A stretch of 64,000 nucleotides of DNA from Candidatus Rifleibacteriota bacterium (GCA_024710355.1 JANJUX010000033.1:22641-86640); one strand, 5' to 3'; counted from the first letter of the stretch, positions 3,770 through 11,557 are shown. Translations and numbers: made by a program. The notes: generated from the sequence alone by a model not told the origin.

Positions 3770-4995
3770 TGCTGCTGACCACCTTTGCCCGGGCCGCGCC
3801 CCTTGCCCTTTTCGCCGGCAGGTGCAGCAGGCTGGTCTTTTCCGGGGAGCTTGATATTACTGCCATCTTCGAGCAGGTGATGTCCAAGAACCACGACAGC
3901 ACCTGAAATTGTCGGCGAAGCAATCTCGGCCCGGTCGCCTTCGAGAAAACCGACTTCAACCGGTATAAACCTGGCAATACTCTTTTCGCTGTCGACGAGG
4001 AAAAGGCCTTCCTGGTCGTTGCGTCTGACGAGAGCCGAAGCCGGGGCAATCGTTACCGAGTCGTGCCGCGCGTAAATCAGCCTGGCTTTAACAAACATAC
4101 CCGGTTTGAGGGCATTATCAGTATTTGAAAGCTCAAGCTCGATTCTTGCCTGTCTCGATGCCCCGTCAAGCATAGGTGCAATGCGCGAAACCCGTGCTGT
4201 ATAGATACAGTCAGGGATGGCCGCTGTTTCGATTTCGGCGGTCAGACCGGGTCTGATTTTGAAGTATTCACGCTCGACGACGTCGATTACCGCTGTCAGG
4301 GTTGCGATATCGATTACCGAGACTATCGGGGTATTGGCATTGATCATGGCCCCTTCGTTGAGAAAACGTTCAGCAATAAAACGCCGGCCTGAACCACCAC
4401 TCCAGGAAGCATCAACTCTCGCATACGCCAGCTTCAGTTTTGTGGTTTCAAGCGCAGCCTCTTTCTGACTAAGAAGAGCCTTGTTAACCTGATGTCTGGC
4501 CTGTCTGGTTTTGTGAGCCGCCTGAGCGTTCTCTACTTCTACTTCAGAAGAGACCTTCTGCTGCCGCATGGTTTTGACGCGATCGAGTTCGCGCTGCGAA
4601 ATTTCGAGCAGACCAGCGCTTTCATTAAGATTGGCCCGGGCGATTTCAAGGTCGGCTTCGGCCTGTTTAACCGCAAGAAGCATTTCTTCATCGTCAAGAG
4701 TGGCGATAGTTGCGCCATTATCGATGGTATCACCGATATCGACAAAAAGTTTTTTGATTCTGCCCGAGATTTTCGGGGCAACCATGAATTTAGAAGTGGC
4801 TTCGATCGAACCGACAAAGCGCCCCTCATCGACAAGACTGCCGATTTTAAGGGGTTCGATTTCGACCGCAACTGCCATGGCACCGCCAGGCCCGCGCCGG
4901 CCACTCACCGTATTGCTGGCAGACGGCTGAAACTGACTCACAAGAAGCCAGGCAAGAATAATCCCGCTGATAAAAGTTAGTGCGAATCTGTTCAT
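3766..4995 (-). CDS. RND efflux periplasmic adaptor (membrane fusion protein, HlyD/AcrA family).
   Basis: 409 aa with an N-terminal signal anchor, a coiled-coil hairpin (LLAVKQAEADLEIARANLNESAGLLEISQRELDRVKTM), a beta-barrel and a Gly/Pro-rich C-terminus. The stop overlaps the RND start by 4 bp. Confidence 0.85.
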   Translation of the reverse strand: MNRFALTFISGIILAWLLVSQFQPSASNTVSGRRGPGGAMAVAVEIEPLKIGSLVDEGRFVGSIEATSKFMVAPKISGRIKKLFVDIGDTIDNGATIATLDDEEMLLAVKQAEADLEIARANLNESAGLLEISQRELDRVKTMRQQKVSSEVEVENAQAAHKTRQARHQVNKALLSQKEAALETTKLKLAYARVDASWSGGSGRRFIAERFLNEGAMINANTPIVSVIDIATLTAVIDVVEREYFKIRPGLTAEIETAAIPDCIYTARVSRIAPMLDGASRQARIELELSNTDNALKPGMFVKARLIYARHDSVTIAPASALVRRNDQEGLFLVDSEKSIARFIPVEVGFLEGDRAEIASPTISGAVVVLGHHLLEDGSNIKLPGKDQPAAPAGEKGKGRGPGKGGQQQ

Positions 4996-5017
4996 ATATC
5001 TCCCTTATGAAGCCTCT

Positions 5018-5473
5018 TTATTCTTCAGCTTCCACGTGTAAATTACGATATTCGCGCCGGGCATTTTCGGCGACCCGGATCATCAGTGCAAAAATCATTT
5101 CTTTTTCGGCCGGGCTAAAGCCAGCGGTCAGGCGCTGATTCCAGTCTTTGAGAAACGCCTTGATCTCACCGGCGGCGGCGGCACCGCTGGCGGTAATTTT
5201 TACCTCATAGCGGCGGTGGTCATCTTCGGCAATGCGGCGTTCGACGTAACCGACCTCTTCGAGCTTTCTGATGGCACGGGCGGTGGTCGCCTTGTCGAAC
5301 ATCAGCGCCTGCGATATGGCTTCCTGTGATGAAGGGCCGCTGCGGCTCAGGTAATTGAGAAAGGGAAACTGGCCGTAGCCGATCTGCAACTTTCTGAGTC
5401 TTTCTGCCATATATGCATGGGTGGCACGATATGTCTGAGCAACCCAGCGGCCAAGAAATTGCTGTTCAACCAT
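5018..5473 (-). CDS. MarR-family transcriptional regulator, probably the repressor of the efflux operon.
   Basis: The winged-helix region SQEAISQALMFDKATTARAIRKLEEVGYVERRIAEDDHRRYEVKITASG is the MarR signature. The start was chosen at the internal ATG (MVEQQFL...) rather than the ORF-track start at 5587. It is the first gene of the marR-mfp-rnd-omp operon. Confidence 0.8.
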   Translation of the reverse strand: MVEQQFLGRWVAQTYRATHAYMAERLRKLQIGYGQFPFLNYLSRSGPSSQEAISQALMFDKATTARAIRKLEEVGYVERRIAEDDHRRYEVKITASGAAAAGEIKAFLKDWNQRLTAGFSPAEKEMIFALMIRVAENARREYRNLHVEAEE

Positions 5474-5494
5474 ATGAATTATCTGCTTTTTCGT

Positions 5495-5522
5495 AAAATT
5501 AGTTGCGCACGCAACTAATTTT
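5495..5522. promoter_or_regulatory. Perfect 13-bp inverted repeat with a 2-bp spacer (aaaattagttgcg-ca-cgcaactaatttt). Candidate MarR operator.
   Basis: Read directly from the sequence. It lies 22 bp upstream of the marR start codon, and MarR dimers bind palindromes of this size. Confidence 0.5.
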
Positions 5523-5634
5523 ACCACAGACAACATTGCCCGAAAACCCCCGGATTTTATTTTGGTTATCAAGCCACAAAGCACCATCAGACAGCAACTT
5601 TGCCCACAGCCAGCCGAGGTGGTATACTTTGCAG

Positions 5635-6054
5635 ATGCAGATGATTCTAAATAAAAAAGGTGTCAGCAGTTACGAGATCATCGCTCTGCTGCTGCTTCTT
5701 GCGGCAGCCTGGGCCGGTGACACTATCGGTTCGCGCTTCGGCAACACCGCCGGCATAGTCGGTATGATCGCGTTTCCGCTCATACTGATTATTCTCATCG
5801 AAAAGCTTGCCTGGCTCGAGCGAGAACTCATACTTGGACAAAAACCATACCCGAAATGTATCTGCGGCAAAGCGACGATTGACAGTCTGCCCGAAGACCC
5901 TGACACGCCTGCTGTCGGCAGCGGCATTTTTCGCTGCAGCTGTGGCCGGGTCTACGACACGGGTGGCCGCGGCATCATCGAAATTGTAGACAACGAAAAC
6001 CGGCGGCCATTTGCCCGCTGGAAAGCCTTTAAAGGCTGGATTTTATCAGATTAA
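5635..6054 (+). CDS. Small membrane protein with a C-terminal zinc-ribbon-like motif (hypothetical).
   Basis: Internal ATG of ORF 5503..6054 preceded by GAGGTGG. Two hydrophobic helices (IIALLLLLAAAW and GMIAFPLILIILI) are followed by CICG...CSCG. Confidence 0.4.
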   Translation: MQMILNKKGVSSYEIIALLLLLAAAWAGDTIGSRFGNTAGIVGMIAFPLILIILIEKLAWLERELILGQKPYPKCICGKATIDSLPEDPDTPAVGSGIFRCSCGRVYDTGGRGIIEIVDNENRRPFARWKAFKGWILSD

Positions 6055-6494
6055 TTCATGCCCTGGCCGGTTCGCACTTTTTCGAGGTGCCTGGCGATCG
6101 ACTCATACATCGGCCTGAAAAATGGCGCGGTGTCGAGTTCTGGCTCGATTCTTTTCCAGACCGCATTGACCGGAAAAATTACACTGCCGGTGTTTTCGTC
6201 GATCAAAGCCGGTTCGGTGCCATACTGATCTTCGATCATCTGCCAGATAAAGCCAAAATCGACCCTGAGCAACTCACCAAAAAGCGACCCGAGTCCAGAA
6301 GCGACATCAGCGGCCGGCATGCGACTATTGGTCGGCTGGGCAGCCCACTTTTTAAACACCTGATCGAGAAGATCAGCCGAAGGCGGACCCTTATGATGAC
6401 CCGATAAAGCCAGGCAGAGCTCGCGACCTGCCGCAAGACCTTTTGCCAGGTTTGCCTGTTCCGTTTCGTTAAAACCAGAAATTTTTGGCTGCAT
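6051..6494 (-). CDS. Hypothetical protein, 147 aa.
   Basis: Clean ORF convergent with the previous gene. No motif recognised. Confidence 0.45.
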   Translation of the reverse strand: MQPKISGFNETEQANLAKGLAAGRELCLALSGHHKGPPSADLLDQVFKKWAAQPTNSRMPAADVASGLGSLFGELLRVDFGFIWQMIEDQYGTEPALIDENTGSVIFPVNAVWKRIEPELDTAPFFRPMYESIARHLEKVRTGQGMN

Positions 6495-6715
6495 AGATTC
6501 ACTCGCTTTAATTTTTTGGGCATTAGTGATAAAAGATAATAATTGATTGCCGCTTCAACTACAACATGGCCTGACCGCCACGCCTTTGCTGGACCGCAGC
6601 AATTTTAGCGACGATTCTCGCCGCTGATAACTTGTTTTTAAGAGTTTCTTCTTGACACATTGCAGCATAAAAGTTATTTAAAGAGAATGACAAAGGAATG
6701 CTAAGGAGGCCGAAA

Positions 6716-7990
6716 ATGGTCGATTCTGAAGACACTGGAAAAGTCATACTGGTACTTAACTGCGGCAGTTCATCGCTGAAATACGATCTGATACTTATGC
6801 CGCACCGCAAAAGTCTCGGAAAAGGCATCGTCGAAAGAATTGGCGAAGAAAAGGGCAGCCTCGAACAAAAATCTGACGACAAGAAACTGGTAATCGAGCA
6901 GAAGATCAAAGATCATCGCGAAGCCCTCGAACTCGTGATGCGAGCCATTACTGACCGCGATGAAGGCATTATCAAAGATGTTTCCGAGATTGCTGGCATC
7001 GGCCACCGCGTCGTTCACGGTGGTGACAAGTATGCATCATCCGTAGTAATAGACGAAAGCGTTGTTGCCGCCATCGAAGAATTTATCGAGCTCGCACCAC
7101 TGCACAACCCGCCCAACCTTACCGGCATTCAGGTCGCGCGAGAACTCATGCCTAATCTCAAGCAGGTTGCGGTTTTTGACACAGCTTTTCACCAGACCAT
7201 GCCTTCGCATGCCTATCTCTACGGCCTGCCCCGCAAGTTTTATGAAGAATTTAAAATCAGACGTTACGGCTTTCACGGAACCAGCCATCGCTACGTTTCA
7301 GCCCGCGCTGTGGAACTCTGCCGCCGTCACCCCAGCAATACCAACGTAATTTCGTGTCACCTTGGCAACGGTGGCTCGGTAACCGCGATTGCCAGAGGCA
7401 AATCGATCGACACGTCGATGGGCTTTACGCCGCTCGAAGGCATGATCATGGGAACCAGGTCGGGTGACCTAGACCCGGCAATTCTTGGCTTTCTCATGGA
7501 CCGCGGCTATTCTTCGAAAGACCTCATCAAGATGTTGAACAAGGAAAGCGGTCTGCTTGGCCTATCGGGTATTTCAAATGACATGCGTGACCTCGAAAAA
7601 GCAGCTGAAGAAGGTAATCATCGCGCCAAAGAAGCTATCGACTGCTATGCCTACCGGGTCAGAAAATATATTGGTGCCTACGCCGCCAACCTGATCAAGG
7701 TGGATATTCTCGTTTTCACCGGTGGCATAGGCCAGAACGGCTGGCGCATGCGCGAGCGTATCTGCAAACGCCTCGAAAACCTCGGTATCTTTCTCGATCA
7801 CAAGCTCAACAAAGAGATGGGCTCAAAAGAAGGCATCGTTTCTGAGGCTTATTCTCCGGTAACTGTGGCTGTAATACCAACCAACGAAGAACTGCAGATT
7901 GCCATAGACGTTTATGAGCTCGCCTTCGGTGGTGAATCGGCTTTCAGGCGCCGCCAGACCGATTTTAACGTCGGAATGAAGCGTTCGTGA
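6716..7990 (+). CDS. ackA: Acetate kinase.
   Basis: The N-terminal KVILVLNCGSSSLKYDLI motif is present. The length (424 aa) and overall conservation fit. An AAGGAGG sequence lies 6 nt upstream of ATG 6716. Confidence 0.9.
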   Translation: MVDSEDTGKVILVLNCGSSSLKYDLILMPHRKSLGKGIVERIGEEKGSLEQKSDDKKLVIEQKIKDHREALELVMRAITDRDEGIIKDVSEIAGIGHRVVHGGDKYASSVVIDESVVAAIEEFIELAPLHNPPNLTGIQVARELMPNLKQVAVFDTAFHQTMPSHAYLYGLPRKFYEEFKIRRYGFHGTSHRYVSARAVELCRRHPSNTNVISCHLGNGGSVTAIARGKSIDTSMGFTPLEGMIMGTRSGDLDPAILGFLMDRGYSSKDLIKMLNKESGLLGLSGISNDMRDLEKAAEEGNHRAKEAIDCYAYRVRKYIGAYAANLIKVDILVFTGGIGQNGWRMRERICKRLENLGIFLDHKLNKEMGSKEGIVSEAYSPVTVAVIPTNEELQIAIDVYELAFGGESAFRRRQTDFNVGMKRS

Positions 7991-8605: not shown

Positions 8606-8656
8606 AAAAAACCCGCATTTCTGCGGGCTTTTCAGTGCCGGAAGTCGGGGTCGAAC
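8606..8656. repeat. Direct repeat copy A, 51 bp. It is identical to 10944..10994 and contains a terminator hairpin plus the last 21 nt of the tRNA-Leu 3' end. This is the distal boundary of the islet (attL/attR-like).
   Basis: Exact string match: aaaaaacccgcatttctgcgggcttttcagtgccggaagtcggggtcgaac occurs at both positions. Confidence 0.85.
8612..8631. terminator. Rho-independent terminator hairpin (cccgca-tttc-tgcggg) flanked by A/T runs on both strands. It terminates the methyltransferase gene on + and the toxin-antitoxin operon on -.
   Basis: A 6-bp GC stem with a 4-nt loop. The T-run on the - strand (aaaacaaaaaa read as its complement) is stronger than the + strand run (cttttc). Confidence 0.55.
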
Positions 8657-8786
8657 AGTCGTTTATAACAGTCACTGCGACTAACTTTAACATTAAAAAT
8701 TTATCGAGTTACACCAAAAAGTTACACCATTTTGAGTGCCGCGCCCAAAATTTCTCTGGTCTGTTTTCGATGTTTCCAAATTTTTT

Positions 8787-9050
8787 TTAAGATAATTCTG
8801 CTATCAACTTGTCATAATCTGCGTGGCTACCAATCCAGAACCAGAGCAAGCCATCTGCGACCTCTACGGCAAGAGCTCGGTAACGAATACCCGCCCTGAC
8901 CGACCACAACCGCCCGATCTGTTTGAAGTTCAATGATGCGTGTTTCGGGTCTTTCTTTAGAAGTTCATAATTTTTGTCGGCGGTTTTTCTTATTCTGGCA
9001 GGCAATGCGTCATAGGCAGACCAGAAAGAAGAACTTGCGAAATGATTCAT
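8787..9050 (-). CDS. Type II toxin, ParE/RelE superfamily.
   Basis: 87 aa. The sequence WSVRAGIRYRALAVEVADGLLWFWIGSHADYDKL has the RelE/ParE fold signature. It overlaps its upstream partner by 4 bp. Confidence 0.65.
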   Translation of the reverse strand: MNHFASSSFWSAYDALPARIRKTADKNYELLKKDPKHASLNFKQIGRLWSVRAGIRYRALAVEVADGLLWFWIGSHADYDKLIAELS

Positions 9051-9250
9051 AGTTGCCTGGTTTTGCCGTCTTTATGCTCTGCAATCGCCTTGTTTATAAG
9101 AGAGTCCAGCTTTCCTGATGCACAGTCTCTCTCTATTTTTTCGTCCCATTTCTTAGCGTCAAAGCGATCAAACCATTCTCTAAAGTTCTGCAACTGGTCT
9201 TCAGACAACTGCTTAACAGCGTTTTCCAGGTCTTTAACCGGATTACTCAT
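9047..9250 (-). CDS. Antitoxin (putative addiction-module component, TIGR02574-like).
   Basis: 67 aa. The sequence LSEDQLQNFREWFDRFDAKKWDEKIERD is typical of this antitoxin family. It is translationally coupled (ATGA) to the toxin. Confidence 0.6.
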   Translation of the reverse strand: MSNPVKDLENAVKQLSEDQLQNFREWFDRFDAKKWDEKIERDCASGKLDSLINKAIAEHKDGKTRQL

Positions 9251-9440
9251 AATTTGGCCCCTGTTTACAGTCTTAACTTATGCCCGGAGGTGAAGTATTT
9301 TTCATTCTTGATATTCCATATTGGCATATCAAAATTTGTGAATTTATCGTCACACTCTACTTTTTTGGCCTGGTTCGGCAAGAATATGCCGCCGATCTGC
9401 CGGTAAGTCAAATAGAAATTGTGGCAGTGAACTGTTGGCG

Positions 9441-9812
9441 CTATTCTTTTCGACCGATTCCTTCTGCTATTAAAGAAGCGGCCAGAAAGTTCATGCTGAC
9501 ATTTTCTTTCTTTGCGAGCTTGATAAGCTTGGAATGTAGAGTTTTAGTGAGCCTGAGAACAAACTTGCCGCTTGCGTCGATCTCTTTGTATTTGTCGGCG
9601 CTGTAAGGCTTCGGAATCGGCTTGCCAAGCTCCTGCAAGGTCTGAATCAAACCCTTGAGAGCATCGCGCCCGTTTTCCATGGCCTCTTCAATCGTCTCAC
9701 CATCAGATATGCACTCGTTGAAGTCGGGGTAACTGATGAGAAAGCCGCCGCCTTCTTCTTTGGTGAGCGTGCGAATCTCGAAAGGATACTTGTCTAATTC
9801 AGTTTTTTTCAT
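9441..9812 (-). CDS. hicB: HicB-family antitoxin with a C-terminal RHH DNA-binding domain.
   Basis: 123 aa. The N-terminal YPFEIRTLTKEEGGGFLISYPDFNECISDGETIEEAMENGRDAL is the HicB RNase-H-like fold. The C-terminal LTKTLHSKLIKLAKKENVSMNFLAASLIAEGI is a ribbon-helix-helix. Confidence 0.75.
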   Translation of the reverse strand: MKKTELDKYPFEIRTLTKEEGGGFLISYPDFNECISDGETIEEAMENGRDALKGLIQTLQELGKPIPKPYSADKYKEIDASGKFVLRLTKTLHSKLIKLAKKENVSMNFLAASLIAEGIGRKE

Positions 9813-10039
9813 AGATATACCTCGATGAAAACAAGAAACTTCTGCACATAGACGGGCTTTATCGGCCTGTGTGCCGGAACAGTCAGAGAAACGCCGTCAT
9901 CTCTTACAAACTGCACATGGCTTGTGCCGTTTTGTCTCCAGACGATTCCATATCTGGAAGCAATGGCAGTTAAATCGGCAATGCGCCAATCACGCGGATT
10001 GTTGCGCATTTTTTCTATCGTTTTCTCTGCTTTGGTCAT
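9809..10039 (-). CDS. hicA: HicA-family mRNA-interferase toxin.
   Basis: 76 aa. WRQNGTSHVQFVRDDGVSLTVPAHRPIKP matches the HicA/YcfA core (G-SH...P-H). It overlaps hicB by 4 bp and lies upstream of hicB, as is canonical. Confidence 0.7.
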   Translation of the reverse strand: MTKAEKTIEKMRNNPRDWRIADLTAIASRYGIVWRQNGTSHVQFVRDDGVSLTVPAHRPIKPVYVQKFLVFIEVYL

Positions 10040-10192
10040 ATTTTAATGATACCGCATCTAATACTATTGTCAAGTATTACGCTGCGCCGACAAAACCTGA
10101 CAGCTCGCTAAAATAGAGAAGATGCTCCGGCCTAAGGGTGGCACACCTTACGGCGATACCACAGCCGAAACATCTTCAAGAACTTTAACGGT

Positions 10193-10402
10193 TCATCCGA
10201 CTAAAGCGTACTTTGTTTGATGAAGTGCTTTGATTTTGAGTTTAAAGAACTCCATATCTCGAAAGCCATATGCCTGGAGCTTCATGGTTTTGATTTTGTT
10301 GTTGAAGCCCTCTAGAGGGCCCGTTGAAATCTTGTAATCATAACATGCAAGTATTGCTGCTTCATGCAGCTCCACCGTCTTTGAAAATGTTTTTCTTTGA
10401 AG
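10193..10402 (-). pseudogene. ISL3-family transposase, C-terminal ~65-aa remnant only (degraded IS).
   Basis: AAILACYDYKISTGPLEGFNNKIKTMKLQAYGFRDMEFFKLKIKALHQ matches the conserved ISL3 C-terminus (TNGxxEGxNNKIKxIKRxAYGFRNxxxFxxRI). The sequence upstream in the same ORF (MPLIPSLRPPQEPQ...) is not transposase-like. Confidence 0.55.
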
Positions 10403-10493
10403 ATTATGATAAAGCAATCCTCTGTGTTGGCTTTGTTTTTGATTTTTGCCGGTCTGGCAACAGGTTGTTTTACCGAGACGCCAAAGAAGCCTG

Positions 10494-10646
10494 ATGCCGA
10501 AGCCATTACCCTGCACTTCGTGTAATGGAAGAGGAGTTTGCGGTTCCTGCGGGGGGCGAAGCGATGGAATTAGCGGCAAGATCTGTTCTTTCTGTGATTA
10601 CAAAAGCGTTTGCTGGAGCTGCAAAGGTAGCGGCAAAAGAGGTTAG
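10494..10646 (+). CDS. Possible small protein (50 aa) with four CxxC motifs, a DnaJ-type zinc-finger-like arrangement (CTSC-NGRG, CGSC-GGRS, CSFC, CWSC-KGSG).
   Basis: Internal ATG of ORF 10446..10646 with no convincing RBS. It lies in the degraded islet, so it could be a relic. Confidence 0.25.
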   Translation: MPKPLPCTSCNGRGVCGSCGGRSDGISGKICSFCDYKSVCWSCKGSGKRG

Positions 10647-10805
10647 TGCATCATAAAATTTCTTAACTATATTGCGGCCAGCCAAACGGACTTTGTTTAA
10701 ACGATCTTTTAAAAACCTTTAATTAAAGGCCTGGCATCACGCCCACCGAAGACAGACACTGCCGATCTTCGGCATCAAGCTTTTCTTTATTGATCTCGCT
10801 TTTCG

Positions 10806-10830
10806 GTTTTGAGGTCACAATTTGTGACCT
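10806..10830. repeat. 25-bp perfect palindrome (ttgaggtcacaa-t-ttgtgacctcaa) followed by aaaattcttttt. Terminator, operator or IS-end remnant.
   Basis: Read directly. Each 12-bp arm is the exact reverse complement of the other. Confidence 0.6.
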
Positions 10831-10943
10831 CAAAAATTCTTTTTCTCCCGGCGAAAGTGAAGCATGAAACTTGCTGGGAAGCAGCTGGCGTTGTGCTTAA
10901 ACGCCTAAATTAGAATTTTGGTTGCCACGCCGCGAAGCCCGAA

Positions 10944-10994
10944 AAAAAACCCGCATTTCTGCGGGCTTTTCAGTGCCGGAAGTCGGGGTCGAAC
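10944..10994. repeat. Direct repeat copy B (51 bp, identical to 8606..8656), overlapping the tRNA-Leu 3' end and its terminator.
   Basis: Exact string match with copy A. Confidence 0.85.
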
Positions 10995-11058
10995 CGACAC
11001 GCCTTTAAGGGGCGCGGGATTTTGAGTCCCGTGCGTCTGCCAATTCCGCCATTCCGGC
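10974..11058 (-). tRNA. tRNA-Leu, anticodon CAA.
   Basis: Manual fold of the reverse complement. The acceptor stem GCCGGAA pairs with TTCCGGC. The D-arm is GCG/CGC, the anticodon stem is CGGGA/TCCCG and the loop is CTCAAAA (anticodon CAA). The long variable arm CGCC-CCTTAAA-GGCG identifies a class II tRNA. The T-arm is GTCGG-TTCGACC-CCGAC and the discriminator is A73. No CCA is encoded. Total length is 85 nt. It is followed on the - strand by the hairpin gcccgca-gaaa-tgcgggc plus T8. Confidence 0.85.
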
Positions 11059-11103: not shown

Positions 11104-11250
11104 TTCAGTCTTTGGCAAGCAATCTGATTTTGCGCTTGCATTCAGGGCAGACTGCCCAATGTTCGCCATACTGGTCGGTTATCACGTCAACGGGCTCAAA
11201 AACAGCACCACAGGCGCATTCAACCTGAACAGCGTAAATGTTGTCGAACA
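11104..11250 (-). CDS. Small zinc-ribbon protein, 48 aa (MFDNIYAVQVECACGAVFEPVDVITDQYGEHWAVCPECKRKIRLLAKD).
   Basis: Hand-translated; it is below the 60-aa ORF-track cutoff. A strong GGAGGTGG RBS lies 5 nt upstream of the ATG, and the CxC...CxxC pairs are correctly spaced. Confidence 0.5.
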
Positions 11251-11557
11251 TGATTGCCACCTCCCTGAATTTTTTATTCTCTGCTTACCTGAAGGTACTT
11301 ACAAACCGCCAAAAGTAAAGGCAAAAAGTAACCCACGCACACCGGCACAGAATTGGCACAGAATTGGCGCAGTCCTGCCTTCTCTCCGTTAAAAACCCAA
11401 CCCGCAGGTATTCGGTATTTATCAGTGGCCGGAAGTATAAACATCAACAATAAAACTGCCTTTTGTCAGACAACCTTGTTTTCGCTGATTTTCGGTTGAG
11501 GTTGGCCGGCAAAAAGTTTAAAATCACTCAGAATCGAAACTGCATGGAGAAACAGCG

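Follow-up and report, generated by a model that had tools for sequence, protein, structure and literature searches.

A decayed tRNA-Leu(CAA) island with toxin-antitoxin genes in a Candidatus Rifleibacteriota bacterium

We analyzed a stretch of 64,000 nucleotides (nt) from a Candidatus Rifleibacteriota bacterium (GCA_024710355.1, JANJUX010000033.1:22641-86640), hereafter the window, in which positions 8606 to 10994 hold an islet of toxin-antitoxin genes and gene fragments between two copies of a direct repeat at a tRNA-Leu(CAA) gene. The islet was judged to be an ordinary decayed tRNA-integrated island with a structure like that of a cis-mobilizable element (CIME). From the sequence comparisons, it is very probably a non-autonomous relic of a genomic island with a P4-type integrase, of a family that targets the tRNA-Leu(CAA) gene from the T-loop to the 3' end in Riflebacteria-type bacteria. 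The recognizable pieces of the islet, namely an arm with AGTTACACC repeats, a ParE-like toxin gene with its presumed antitoxin gene, hicAB, a truncated ISL3 element, a broken lipoprotein gene and an ORF6N pseudogene, all match parts of integrase-bearing islands from relatives. This homology supports an earlier note on the same DNA, which had read the region as a tRNA-targeted integrative element. The features of the locus are as follows.

8606-8656, no strand: distal direct repeat on the methyltransferase side, attR-like; hairpin at 8612-8627 and displaced 21-nt tRNA-Leu 3' fragment at 8636-8656
8657-8786, no strand: island arm (P'-like) with two tandem AGTTACACC repeats at 8707-8715 and 8720-8728
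8787-9050, minus: ParE-like toxin gene, intact, 87 amino acids (aa); Pfam PF24732 ParE_like, 26.4 bits against a cut-off of 24.4 (marginal)
9047-9250, minus: presumed antitoxin gene, 67 aa, from the operon layout; 4-nt overlap with the start of the ParE-like toxin gene
9441-9812, minus: hicB antitoxin gene, 123 aa; Pfam HicB_lk_antitox E 1e-10 (42.3 bits), HicB E 3.6e-8 (33.6 bits)
9809-10039, minus: hicA toxin gene, 76 aa; Pfam HicA_toxin E 3.2e-5, 24.4 bits, below the cut-off of 27
10078-10389, minus: truncated ISL3-family insertion sequence, comprising the last ~54 transposase codons (about 10232-10393) and the downstream end
10397-10646, plus: lipoprotein pseudogene; parent of 107 aa with four CxxCxGxG-type Cys motifs; 83-nt deletion at about 10495-10503
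10781-10937, minus: ORF6N-domain gene fragment, a pseudogene with an in-frame stop; holds a 29-nt palindrome at 10807-10835
10944-10994, no strand: proximal direct repeat, attL-like; the intact tRNA's 3' end directly adjoins the hairpin (10950-10965)
10974-11058, minus: intact tRNA-Leu(CAA), the integration target (ARAGORN and Rfam)

The direct repeat and its tRNA-Leu target

A repeat search of the 64-kb window resulted in an exact 51-nt direct repeat, with 8606-8656 identical to 10944-10994, as the earlier note had described. Even when up to three mismatches were allowed, the 51-mer had only these two copies in the 64 kb, and none was found in 100 shuffles. The hairpin CCCGC-N6-GCGGG was likewise confined to the two repeat copies in the window search. 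Each copy comprises the 21-nt 3' end of the tRNA-Leu, from the T-loop to the discriminator, and a 30-nt segment. In this segment, a GC-rich hairpin precedes eight U residues when read on the tRNA strand, and CUUUUC when read on the opposite one; judged by this sequence, the hairpin is terminator-like in both directions. The position of the tRNA-Leu(CAA), given as 10974-11058 on the minus strand by Rfam (54.1 bits) and as 10973-11058 by ARAGORN, confirms together with the hairpin that the repeat consists of a terminator hairpin and 21 nt of the tRNA 3' end. The displaced 21-nt fragment (8636-8656) has the same orientation as the tRNA end, which is the Islander-type signature, standard for islands in tRNA genes (PMC4383910). 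Additionally, the GC content of the islet (0.44) is the lowest of all 2.3-kb stretches of the window (mean 0.52, standard deviation 0.024), in agreement with the claim that the islet is AT-rich relative to its flanks.

The arm adjacent to the distal repeat contains the two tandem AGTTACACC repeats, a motif with three matches in 64 kb against 0.41 expected. In four integrase-bearing relatives (L012, L013, L018 and L058, described below), the module GTTAYACC-N5-GTTAYACY-ATTTTGAG sits between the start of the integrase gene and the att core. Positions 8699-8736 of the window correspond to that module, which means that the repeat is present on both island arms. Because sites of this type should occur on both arms, we infer that the AGTTACACC repeats are arm-type integrase-binding sites. 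A 16-nt likeness between the island arm (8729-8744) and the anticodon arm of the tRNA was also noticed and was treated as chance.

Integrase-bearing islands and empty sites in relatives

For the comparison, approximately 50 loci were collected from metagenomes and metagenome-assembled genomes (MAGs) as exact protein matches to the methyltransferase of the flank, to HU, to the 67-aa open reading frame (ORF) or to the small ORF beside the tRNA. According to the nucleotide identity of the flanks, these loci belong to the window's own species (96-99.9%) or to a sister species (about 88-90%). We also scanned species-representative genomes for the identical tRNA gene, which resulted in 18 loci. Many of them are labelled Candidatus Riflebacteria or Rifleibacterium, and in several FecR and HU are syntenic as in the window. 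The loci of the relatives are designated by L-numbers.

An integrase gene lies directly downstream of the same tRNA end, and is transcribed away from it, in eight relatives (L012, L013, L018, L041, L043, L045, L046 and L058), which answers the suggestion of the earlier note to look for the 51-mer beside integrases elsewhere in the genome. L041, L043, L045 and L046 are species representatives; L058, whose flanks are 97.5% identical, is from the window's own species. The integrase has 416 aa and the domains Arm-DNA-bind_3, Phage_int_M and Phage_integrase. The integrase of L012 matched PF13356 (E 6.6e-22), PF22022 (E 1.9e-23) and PF00589 (E 4.8e-17), and scored 228.9 bits with NF007246, below the cut-off of 434. 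Its identity to the integrase of phage P4 is 35.9% over 94% of the length (E 3e-63). By these sequence features, the integrase of the parent island, which is not in the window, is a P4-type arm-binding tyrosine integrase. A tblastn search found no integrase homologue in the 64 kb of the window, and Pfam found no integrase domain among the islet ORFs. Because the integrase is missing there but present in the islands of relatives at the same site, the window copy is a remnant and not an active member, and the loss of the integrase asserted by the earlier note stands.

From the tRNA outward, the island family is laid out as integrase, ORF6N, an AlpA-like helix-turn-helix (HTH) protein, AAA_25 and primase, followed by variable cargo of bacteriophage exclusion (BREX) type 1, GmrSD, Mrr and type I restriction-modification genes. 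The far end, beside the methyltransferase gene, holds the ParE-like/antitoxin module and the arm with repeated AGTTACACC sites. The tRNA-side half was read in L012, L013 and L018, where the integrase is followed by ORF6N, an ORF of 216-261 aa with no Pfam match, AlpA/HTH_17, AAA_25 and primase, and then by Mrr or type I restriction-modification cargo. ORF6N also lies beside the integrase in L043 and L045; the loci L041, L046 and L058 show the integrase at most. The methyltransferase-side end was seen in L030 (same MAG as L012), L021 and L027, in the order methyltransferase, host terminator, 21-nt core, an arm homologous to 8657-8786 and a ParE-like gene with a premature stop, continuing with an identical 67-aa ORF, BrxA, BrxB, BrxC, PglX and GmrSD. 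In L006, a locus of the window's species, hicAB is followed by BREX genes at the place where the window has the ISL3 remnant. Compared with the intact islands, the window copy is missing the integrase with the arm on that side, as well as the replication module and any recognized defence cargo.

Empty sites were found in eight relatives, all of the sister species (L011, L017, L048, L050, L052, L053, L055 and L057). There, the methyltransferase stop codon is followed by one terminator hairpin and directly by the tRNA 3' end, with no toxin-antitoxin genes and no scar. This order, with a single copy of the sequence, is the one that the earlier note had expected for an unoccupied methyltransferase-terminator-tRNA-Leu site. 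In the window's own species, the site is occupied in all assemblies, either by the islet or by a larger island.

The parent island resembles P4-type tRNA islands, such as the satellite phage P4 and the leuX islands of E. coli, including PAI II536, in several respects. They share the tRNA-Leu target, the erosion by insertion sequence (IS) elements and deletions, and the restoration of the tRNA 3' end with the displaced 3' fragment as the far-end direct repeat; in the window's relatives, an integrase with an arm-binding N-terminal domain also lies immediately downstream of the tRNA. In contrast, the host here belongs to an uncultured Riflebacteria-type lineage, an integrase is absent from the window copy, and the window repeat extends to 51 nt since the terminator beyond the tRNA is also duplicated. 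In the E. coli leuX island, a P4-type integrase is accompanied by 18-bp direct repeats (PMC9686529). We do not claim the status of a phage satellite for the parent island; the P4 genes for capsid hijacking (sid, delta and psu) were neither looked for nor seen, and IMG/VR holds no close relative of the integrase. The best match in the IMG/VR scan with the island integrase had 33% identity, which means that this collection does not contain the family as a virus. A scan of JGI metagenomes with the AAA_25 protein for a complete island returned only a 7-kb and a 2-kb fragment.

The relatives also resemble defence islands on integrative elements, such as BREX-carrying integrative and mobilizable elements and the hotspots of P4-like satellites, in that their variable cargo lies between a conserved integration/replication module and a distal end that is likewise conserved. 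Variable hotspots with a comparable layout are described for P4-like satellites (PMC9122126), and variable defence cargo between conserved ends, which is comparable, is described for defence islands (PMC10121019). Unlike these islands, the window copy has no recognized defence cargo, and its four toxin-antitoxin proteins had no match among the PADLOC models.

Some side observations concern the target and its surroundings. The tRNA-Leu(CAA) gene (85 nt) is 100% identical in the 18 species representatives. Among these (cf. L032, L044 and L047), two MAGs are labelled Avigastranaerophilus and have no shared synteny; another is labelled Methylomirabilis, yet its FecR-HU synteny is like that of Riflebacteria, an indication that the contig was mis-binned. 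A 48-aa ORF immediately upstream of the tRNA-Leu (11105-11251, minus strand) is conserved in all relatives, with ~60% identity in distant species; it has two CxxC-like pairs (CAC...CPEC), and its sole family match, to DUF3039, is weak and sub-threshold.

Toxin-antitoxin genes and gene fragments

The genes between the repeats are those that the earlier note had named, a ParE/RelE-like toxin with its antitoxin and a hicAB pair; Pfam gave a clear HicB match, a marginal ParE_like match and a HicA match below the cut-off, and the 67-aa ORF has no family match in Pfam or NCBIfam. None of the four toxin-antitoxin proteins matched an NCBIfam model, and the ParE-like toxin and its 67-aa partner gave only noise against the PDB sequences. 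In hicAB, the two genes overlap by 4 nt, and a promoter-like site with an 11/12 match precedes hicA (10073-10046).

Conservation differs among these genes. The ParE-like gene is identical in many assemblies and is cut short by an early stop codon in L021, L027 and L030; a frameshift disrupts HicA in L002, L016, L025 and L034. The 67-aa ORF is full-length in all 23 relatives having it, BREX-carrying island ends included (22 identical copies and one, in L009, with 94% identity), and HicB is full-length in every relative keeping it, except in the decayed islet of L042, where only residues 50-123 remain. From these sequences, the toxin genes appear to break before the antitoxin genes. In several relatives, a toxin gene is broken and the islet is nonetheless present, a caveat on the presumption of the earlier note that the toxin-antitoxin modules stabilised the element.

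If active, the pairs would be ordinary type II modules, in which a labile antitoxin would neutralise the ParE-fold toxin in one pair and the HicA RNase in the other, and loss of the segment would thereby be penalised. They resemble type II systems of the ParDE/RelE-fold and HicAB kinds in their two-gene operons, their 4-nt overlaps and their protein lengths (67/87 aa and 76/123 aa), and in the gene order, which is antitoxin-toxin in the ParE-like pair and toxin-antitoxin in hicAB. These orders are the usual ones for the two families. The pairs differ from such systems in that the 67-aa partner gave no match to an antitoxin family and that the ParE-like match is marginal and the HicA match sub-cut-off.

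As a separate observation, L034 (Betzabe_MAG007) carries a hicAB with 97-98% protein identity to that of the window, though its FecR is only ~50% identical. At this locus (native coordinates 4962-6905 and 7062-7644), hicAB adjoins the N-terminal part of a BREX PglX, which an IS66 transposase either disrupts or is fused to. We take the locus as evidence of a recent transfer of hicAB between distant Riflebacteria and, from the sequence, as a second case of IS-driven island decay.

The remaining part of the islet consists of three gene fragments. The ORF at 10193-10579 (minus strand) has as its only family match the last 54 positions of the ISL3 transposase profile, covering positions 187-240 of 240 in Pfam DDE_Tnp_ISL3, which confirms the C-terminal remnant named by the earlier note. 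In NCBIfam, the match covers positions 314-367 of 370 of transpos_ISL3 with 51.9 bits against a cut-off of 180; a full transposase with terminal inverted repeats was not found. The limits of the remnant were set on the left by the end of the match to L006 (10077) and on the right by the beginning of homology to L012 (10390), and the window contained no second ISL3 copy to set the IS ends.

The Cys-rich mini-ORF of the earlier note is present (10446-10646), but it is the 3' half of a 107-aa lipoprotein gene that was split by the 83-nt deletion; the other product of the broken gene is a signal-peptide ORF (10397-10525). The deletion is flanked by 9-nt TGCCGAAGC repeats and occurs in the window and in most same-species assemblies. 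An intact gene is present in L012 (669-992), where it adjoins Mrr, and in L026/L054, and window positions 10390-10645 have ~92% nt identity to 653-991 of L012. The intact island-borne protein is composed of a lipobox-containing signal peptide, a linker and four motifs of the CxxCxGxG type, which resemble the zinc-finger region of DnaJ; no Pfam or NCBIfam family matched it.

The ORF6N fragment matched L013 (6284-6386, inside the ORF6N gene) with 88% identity in blastn and residues 33-57 of the L012 ORF6N protein in tblastn (E 7e-4). The perfect palindrome that had been given as 25 bp is in fact 29 nt (14+1+14) and lies inside this pseudogene fragment. It recurs, slightly imperfect, in the LRSQFVTS region of the intact ORF6N genes (L012 at 6508, L013 at 6310 and L018 at 6506), and also in L042 (1502), which belongs to another species and whose islet has decayed in a different way. 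In L042, both arms are changed symmetrically (GAGGTC/GACCTC to GAAGTC/GACTTC), and this symmetry suggests that the palindrome is under selection for a DNA or RNA structure besides the protein.

Junctions, alternative explanations and meaning

The integrase-side junction of the intact islands (alignment A3) carries a homologue of the last methyltransferase codons of the host, its stop codon and the terminator. Next comes a spacer of 32 nt that contains an inverted repeat of its own, and then TCRG and the 21-nt core. Canonical integration yields a direct repeat of 21-25 nt and a second, displaced block of homology, as in L030 and L012. The window has no spacer at either junction (the host-type arrangement), which results in 51 contiguous identical bases. 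The repeat is 51 nt long because the attP of the island carries the host-terminator homologue and both window junctions are without the spacer. The extension of the repeat into the terminator, which the earlier note had called unusual, is present and is accounted for by the terminator homologue of attP. The perfect 51-mer is limited to a sub-lineage comprising the window, GCA_024710525.1 and GCA_024710025.1; GCA_054685995.1 has one A fewer. Many same-species relatives (L001 type) have the spacer on the methyltransferase side, and in some of these the core carries a G-to-A substitution.

The spacer, with an inverted repeat of the GAGTTTA...TAAACTC type, was observed in every integrase-side junction (L012 8113-8148, L013, L018, L041, L045, L046 and L058), and on the methyltransferase side at 10645-10680 of L001 and at equivalent positions in L003-L010. 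One possibility is that it serves as a site for a recombination protein.

The two spacer-less junctions probably arose through recombination or gene conversion in the terminator-block homology and not in the core, and the resolution of a tandem array would yield the same junction haplotypes. The tRNA-side copy of the repeat may be derived from the host, given that the 7 nt to its left (AAGCCCG) resemble the methyltransferase end of the window's species (AAGCCCTG), but the terminator flank of the island fits almost equally well. We tentatively propose, as a minority view of these junction sequences, that attP carries a captured host copy (last methyltransferase codons, stop codon and bidirectional terminator) split by the 32-nt stem-loop spacer, so that two registers of recombination would exist: one mediated by the integrase at the 21-nt core, the other driven by homology at the ~45-nt terminator block. 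Register switching would shift the spacer between junctions and account for the three junction haplotypes. If this proposal is true, decayed islets would be landing pads with 51 nt of perfect homology, recruiting as well as exchanging defence cargo without an integrase of their own.

Under the interpretation of the islet as a relic, its history would have begun with the insertion of ISL3 into the island. At least three deletions would then have taken away the integrase with the arm on its side, the replication module and the cargo, leaving the two core att copies, both toxin-antitoxin operons and fragments of three genes. Such an islet would be unable to excise on its own and would be lost only via rare recombination between the 51-nt repeats, and it could be carried along if a related island integrated beside it.

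Several points weigh against this interpretation. The toxin assignments are weak: ParE_like barely exceeds its cut-off, HicA falls short of its own, and neither toxin matched a PDB sequence. The methyltransferase-side spacer of many same-species relatives would not be expected from one simple integration. Positions 10647-10780, a segment of ~130 nt that separates the broken lipoprotein gene from the ORF6N fragment, have no counterpart in the fetched islands and no notable ORF. No empty site was found within the window's own species among the assemblies seen. No single contig spans a full island from the methyltransferase to the tRNA, and the two ends represented by L030 and L012 are linked by their shared MAG. 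Finally, all comparison sequences are metagenome or MAG assemblies, which are possibly chimeric around repeats.

The strongest alternative, which we still consider improbable, is that the islet functions as a CIME-like hitch-hiker: a related island would integrate alongside it (tandem accretion), and the composite would be excised and moved, or the modules exchanged. A CIME is an element without integration and transfer genes that retains attL and attR (PMC6323972), and the islet fits this definition, with both cores intact and identical and no integrase; its arm-type repeats lie on one side only. It has the CIME anatomy known from the integrative and conjugative element (ICE) families of Streptococcus and likewise coexists in its species with integrase-bearing relatives, as L058 demonstrates that such islands circulate there. 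The attP-type segment (terminator, 32-nt spacer and core) on the methyltransferase side of many same-species relatives is expected from the resolution of a tandem array or from recombination in the hairpin register. The strains are also mosaic: the ParE pair of L009 is 92-94% identical and its hicAB 100%, and the arms of the window and L001 differ over ~100 nt. This mosaicism can, however, be explained by ordinary homologous recombination between strains, and no assembly contains a tandem array or a circular junction. Moreover, the AGTTAYACY sites of the integrase-side arm are missing at the tRNA-proximal junction, which makes an integrase-mediated excision of the islet alone doubtful. The islet differs from the Streptococcus CIMEs in this absence of integrase-side arm sites, and the parts of the parent island that were seen show no conjugation genes. 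Mobilisation of the islet in cis after accretion with an intact element may occur; the attP-type spacer junctions on the methyltransferase side in relatives bear on it indirectly.

It is very unlikely that the toxin-antitoxin block is instead an ancestral chromosomal locus, with the empty sites of the sister species produced by secondary precise deletions between the repeats and the islands having captured chromosomal genes. Such a locus would fit the presence of the block in all assemblies of the window's species and of a differently decayed version in L042, from another species. Nevertheless, the block has the lowest GC content of the window, begins with a displaced tRNA 3' fragment and an arm with integrase-type repeats, and contains fragments of the island backbone (ORF6N and the lipoprotein gene, which lies beside Mrr in L012). 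Additionally, hicAB is near-identical in a species whose flanking genes are ~50% identical, and the eight empty sites share one clean, scar-free terminator-tRNA junction.

The reading of the 51-nt repeat as a dispersed repetitive extragenic palindromic (REP)-like element, a target-site duplication or an assembly artefact, and not as the product of site-specific integration, can be given practically no weight: the repeated hairpin is a generic GC-rich terminator-like stem-loop, but two copies in 64 kb, even with mismatches or for the hairpin alone, are not the pattern of a REP-like intergenic element, 21 of the 51 nt reproduce exactly, in direct orientation, the 3' end of the tRNA beside them, 51 nt far exceeds any ISL3 target duplication, and the two-copy structure recurs in independent NCBI MAG, ENA, JGI and Logan assemblies. 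The copy number and this recurrence refute the reading.

As a decayed tRNA-integrated island, the islet belongs to a familiar class of genomic fossil, here in an uncultured Riflebacteria-type bacterium. Its sole mildly unusual point is the attP that carries a copy of the host terminator and results in long, variable direct repeats. The tRNA-Leu(CAA) gene is a hot spot of defence-island turnover in an uncultured candidate phylum, represented by Riflebacteria-type MAGs from digesters and sediments. A few related populations display a decay series at this one site, comprising the empty site, the full BREX island, the IS-disrupted island and the 2.3-kb toxin-antitoxin relic. The known workings of such islands are unchanged by these results, which are useful for annotating Riflebacteria-type MAGs and for locating their defence cargo.

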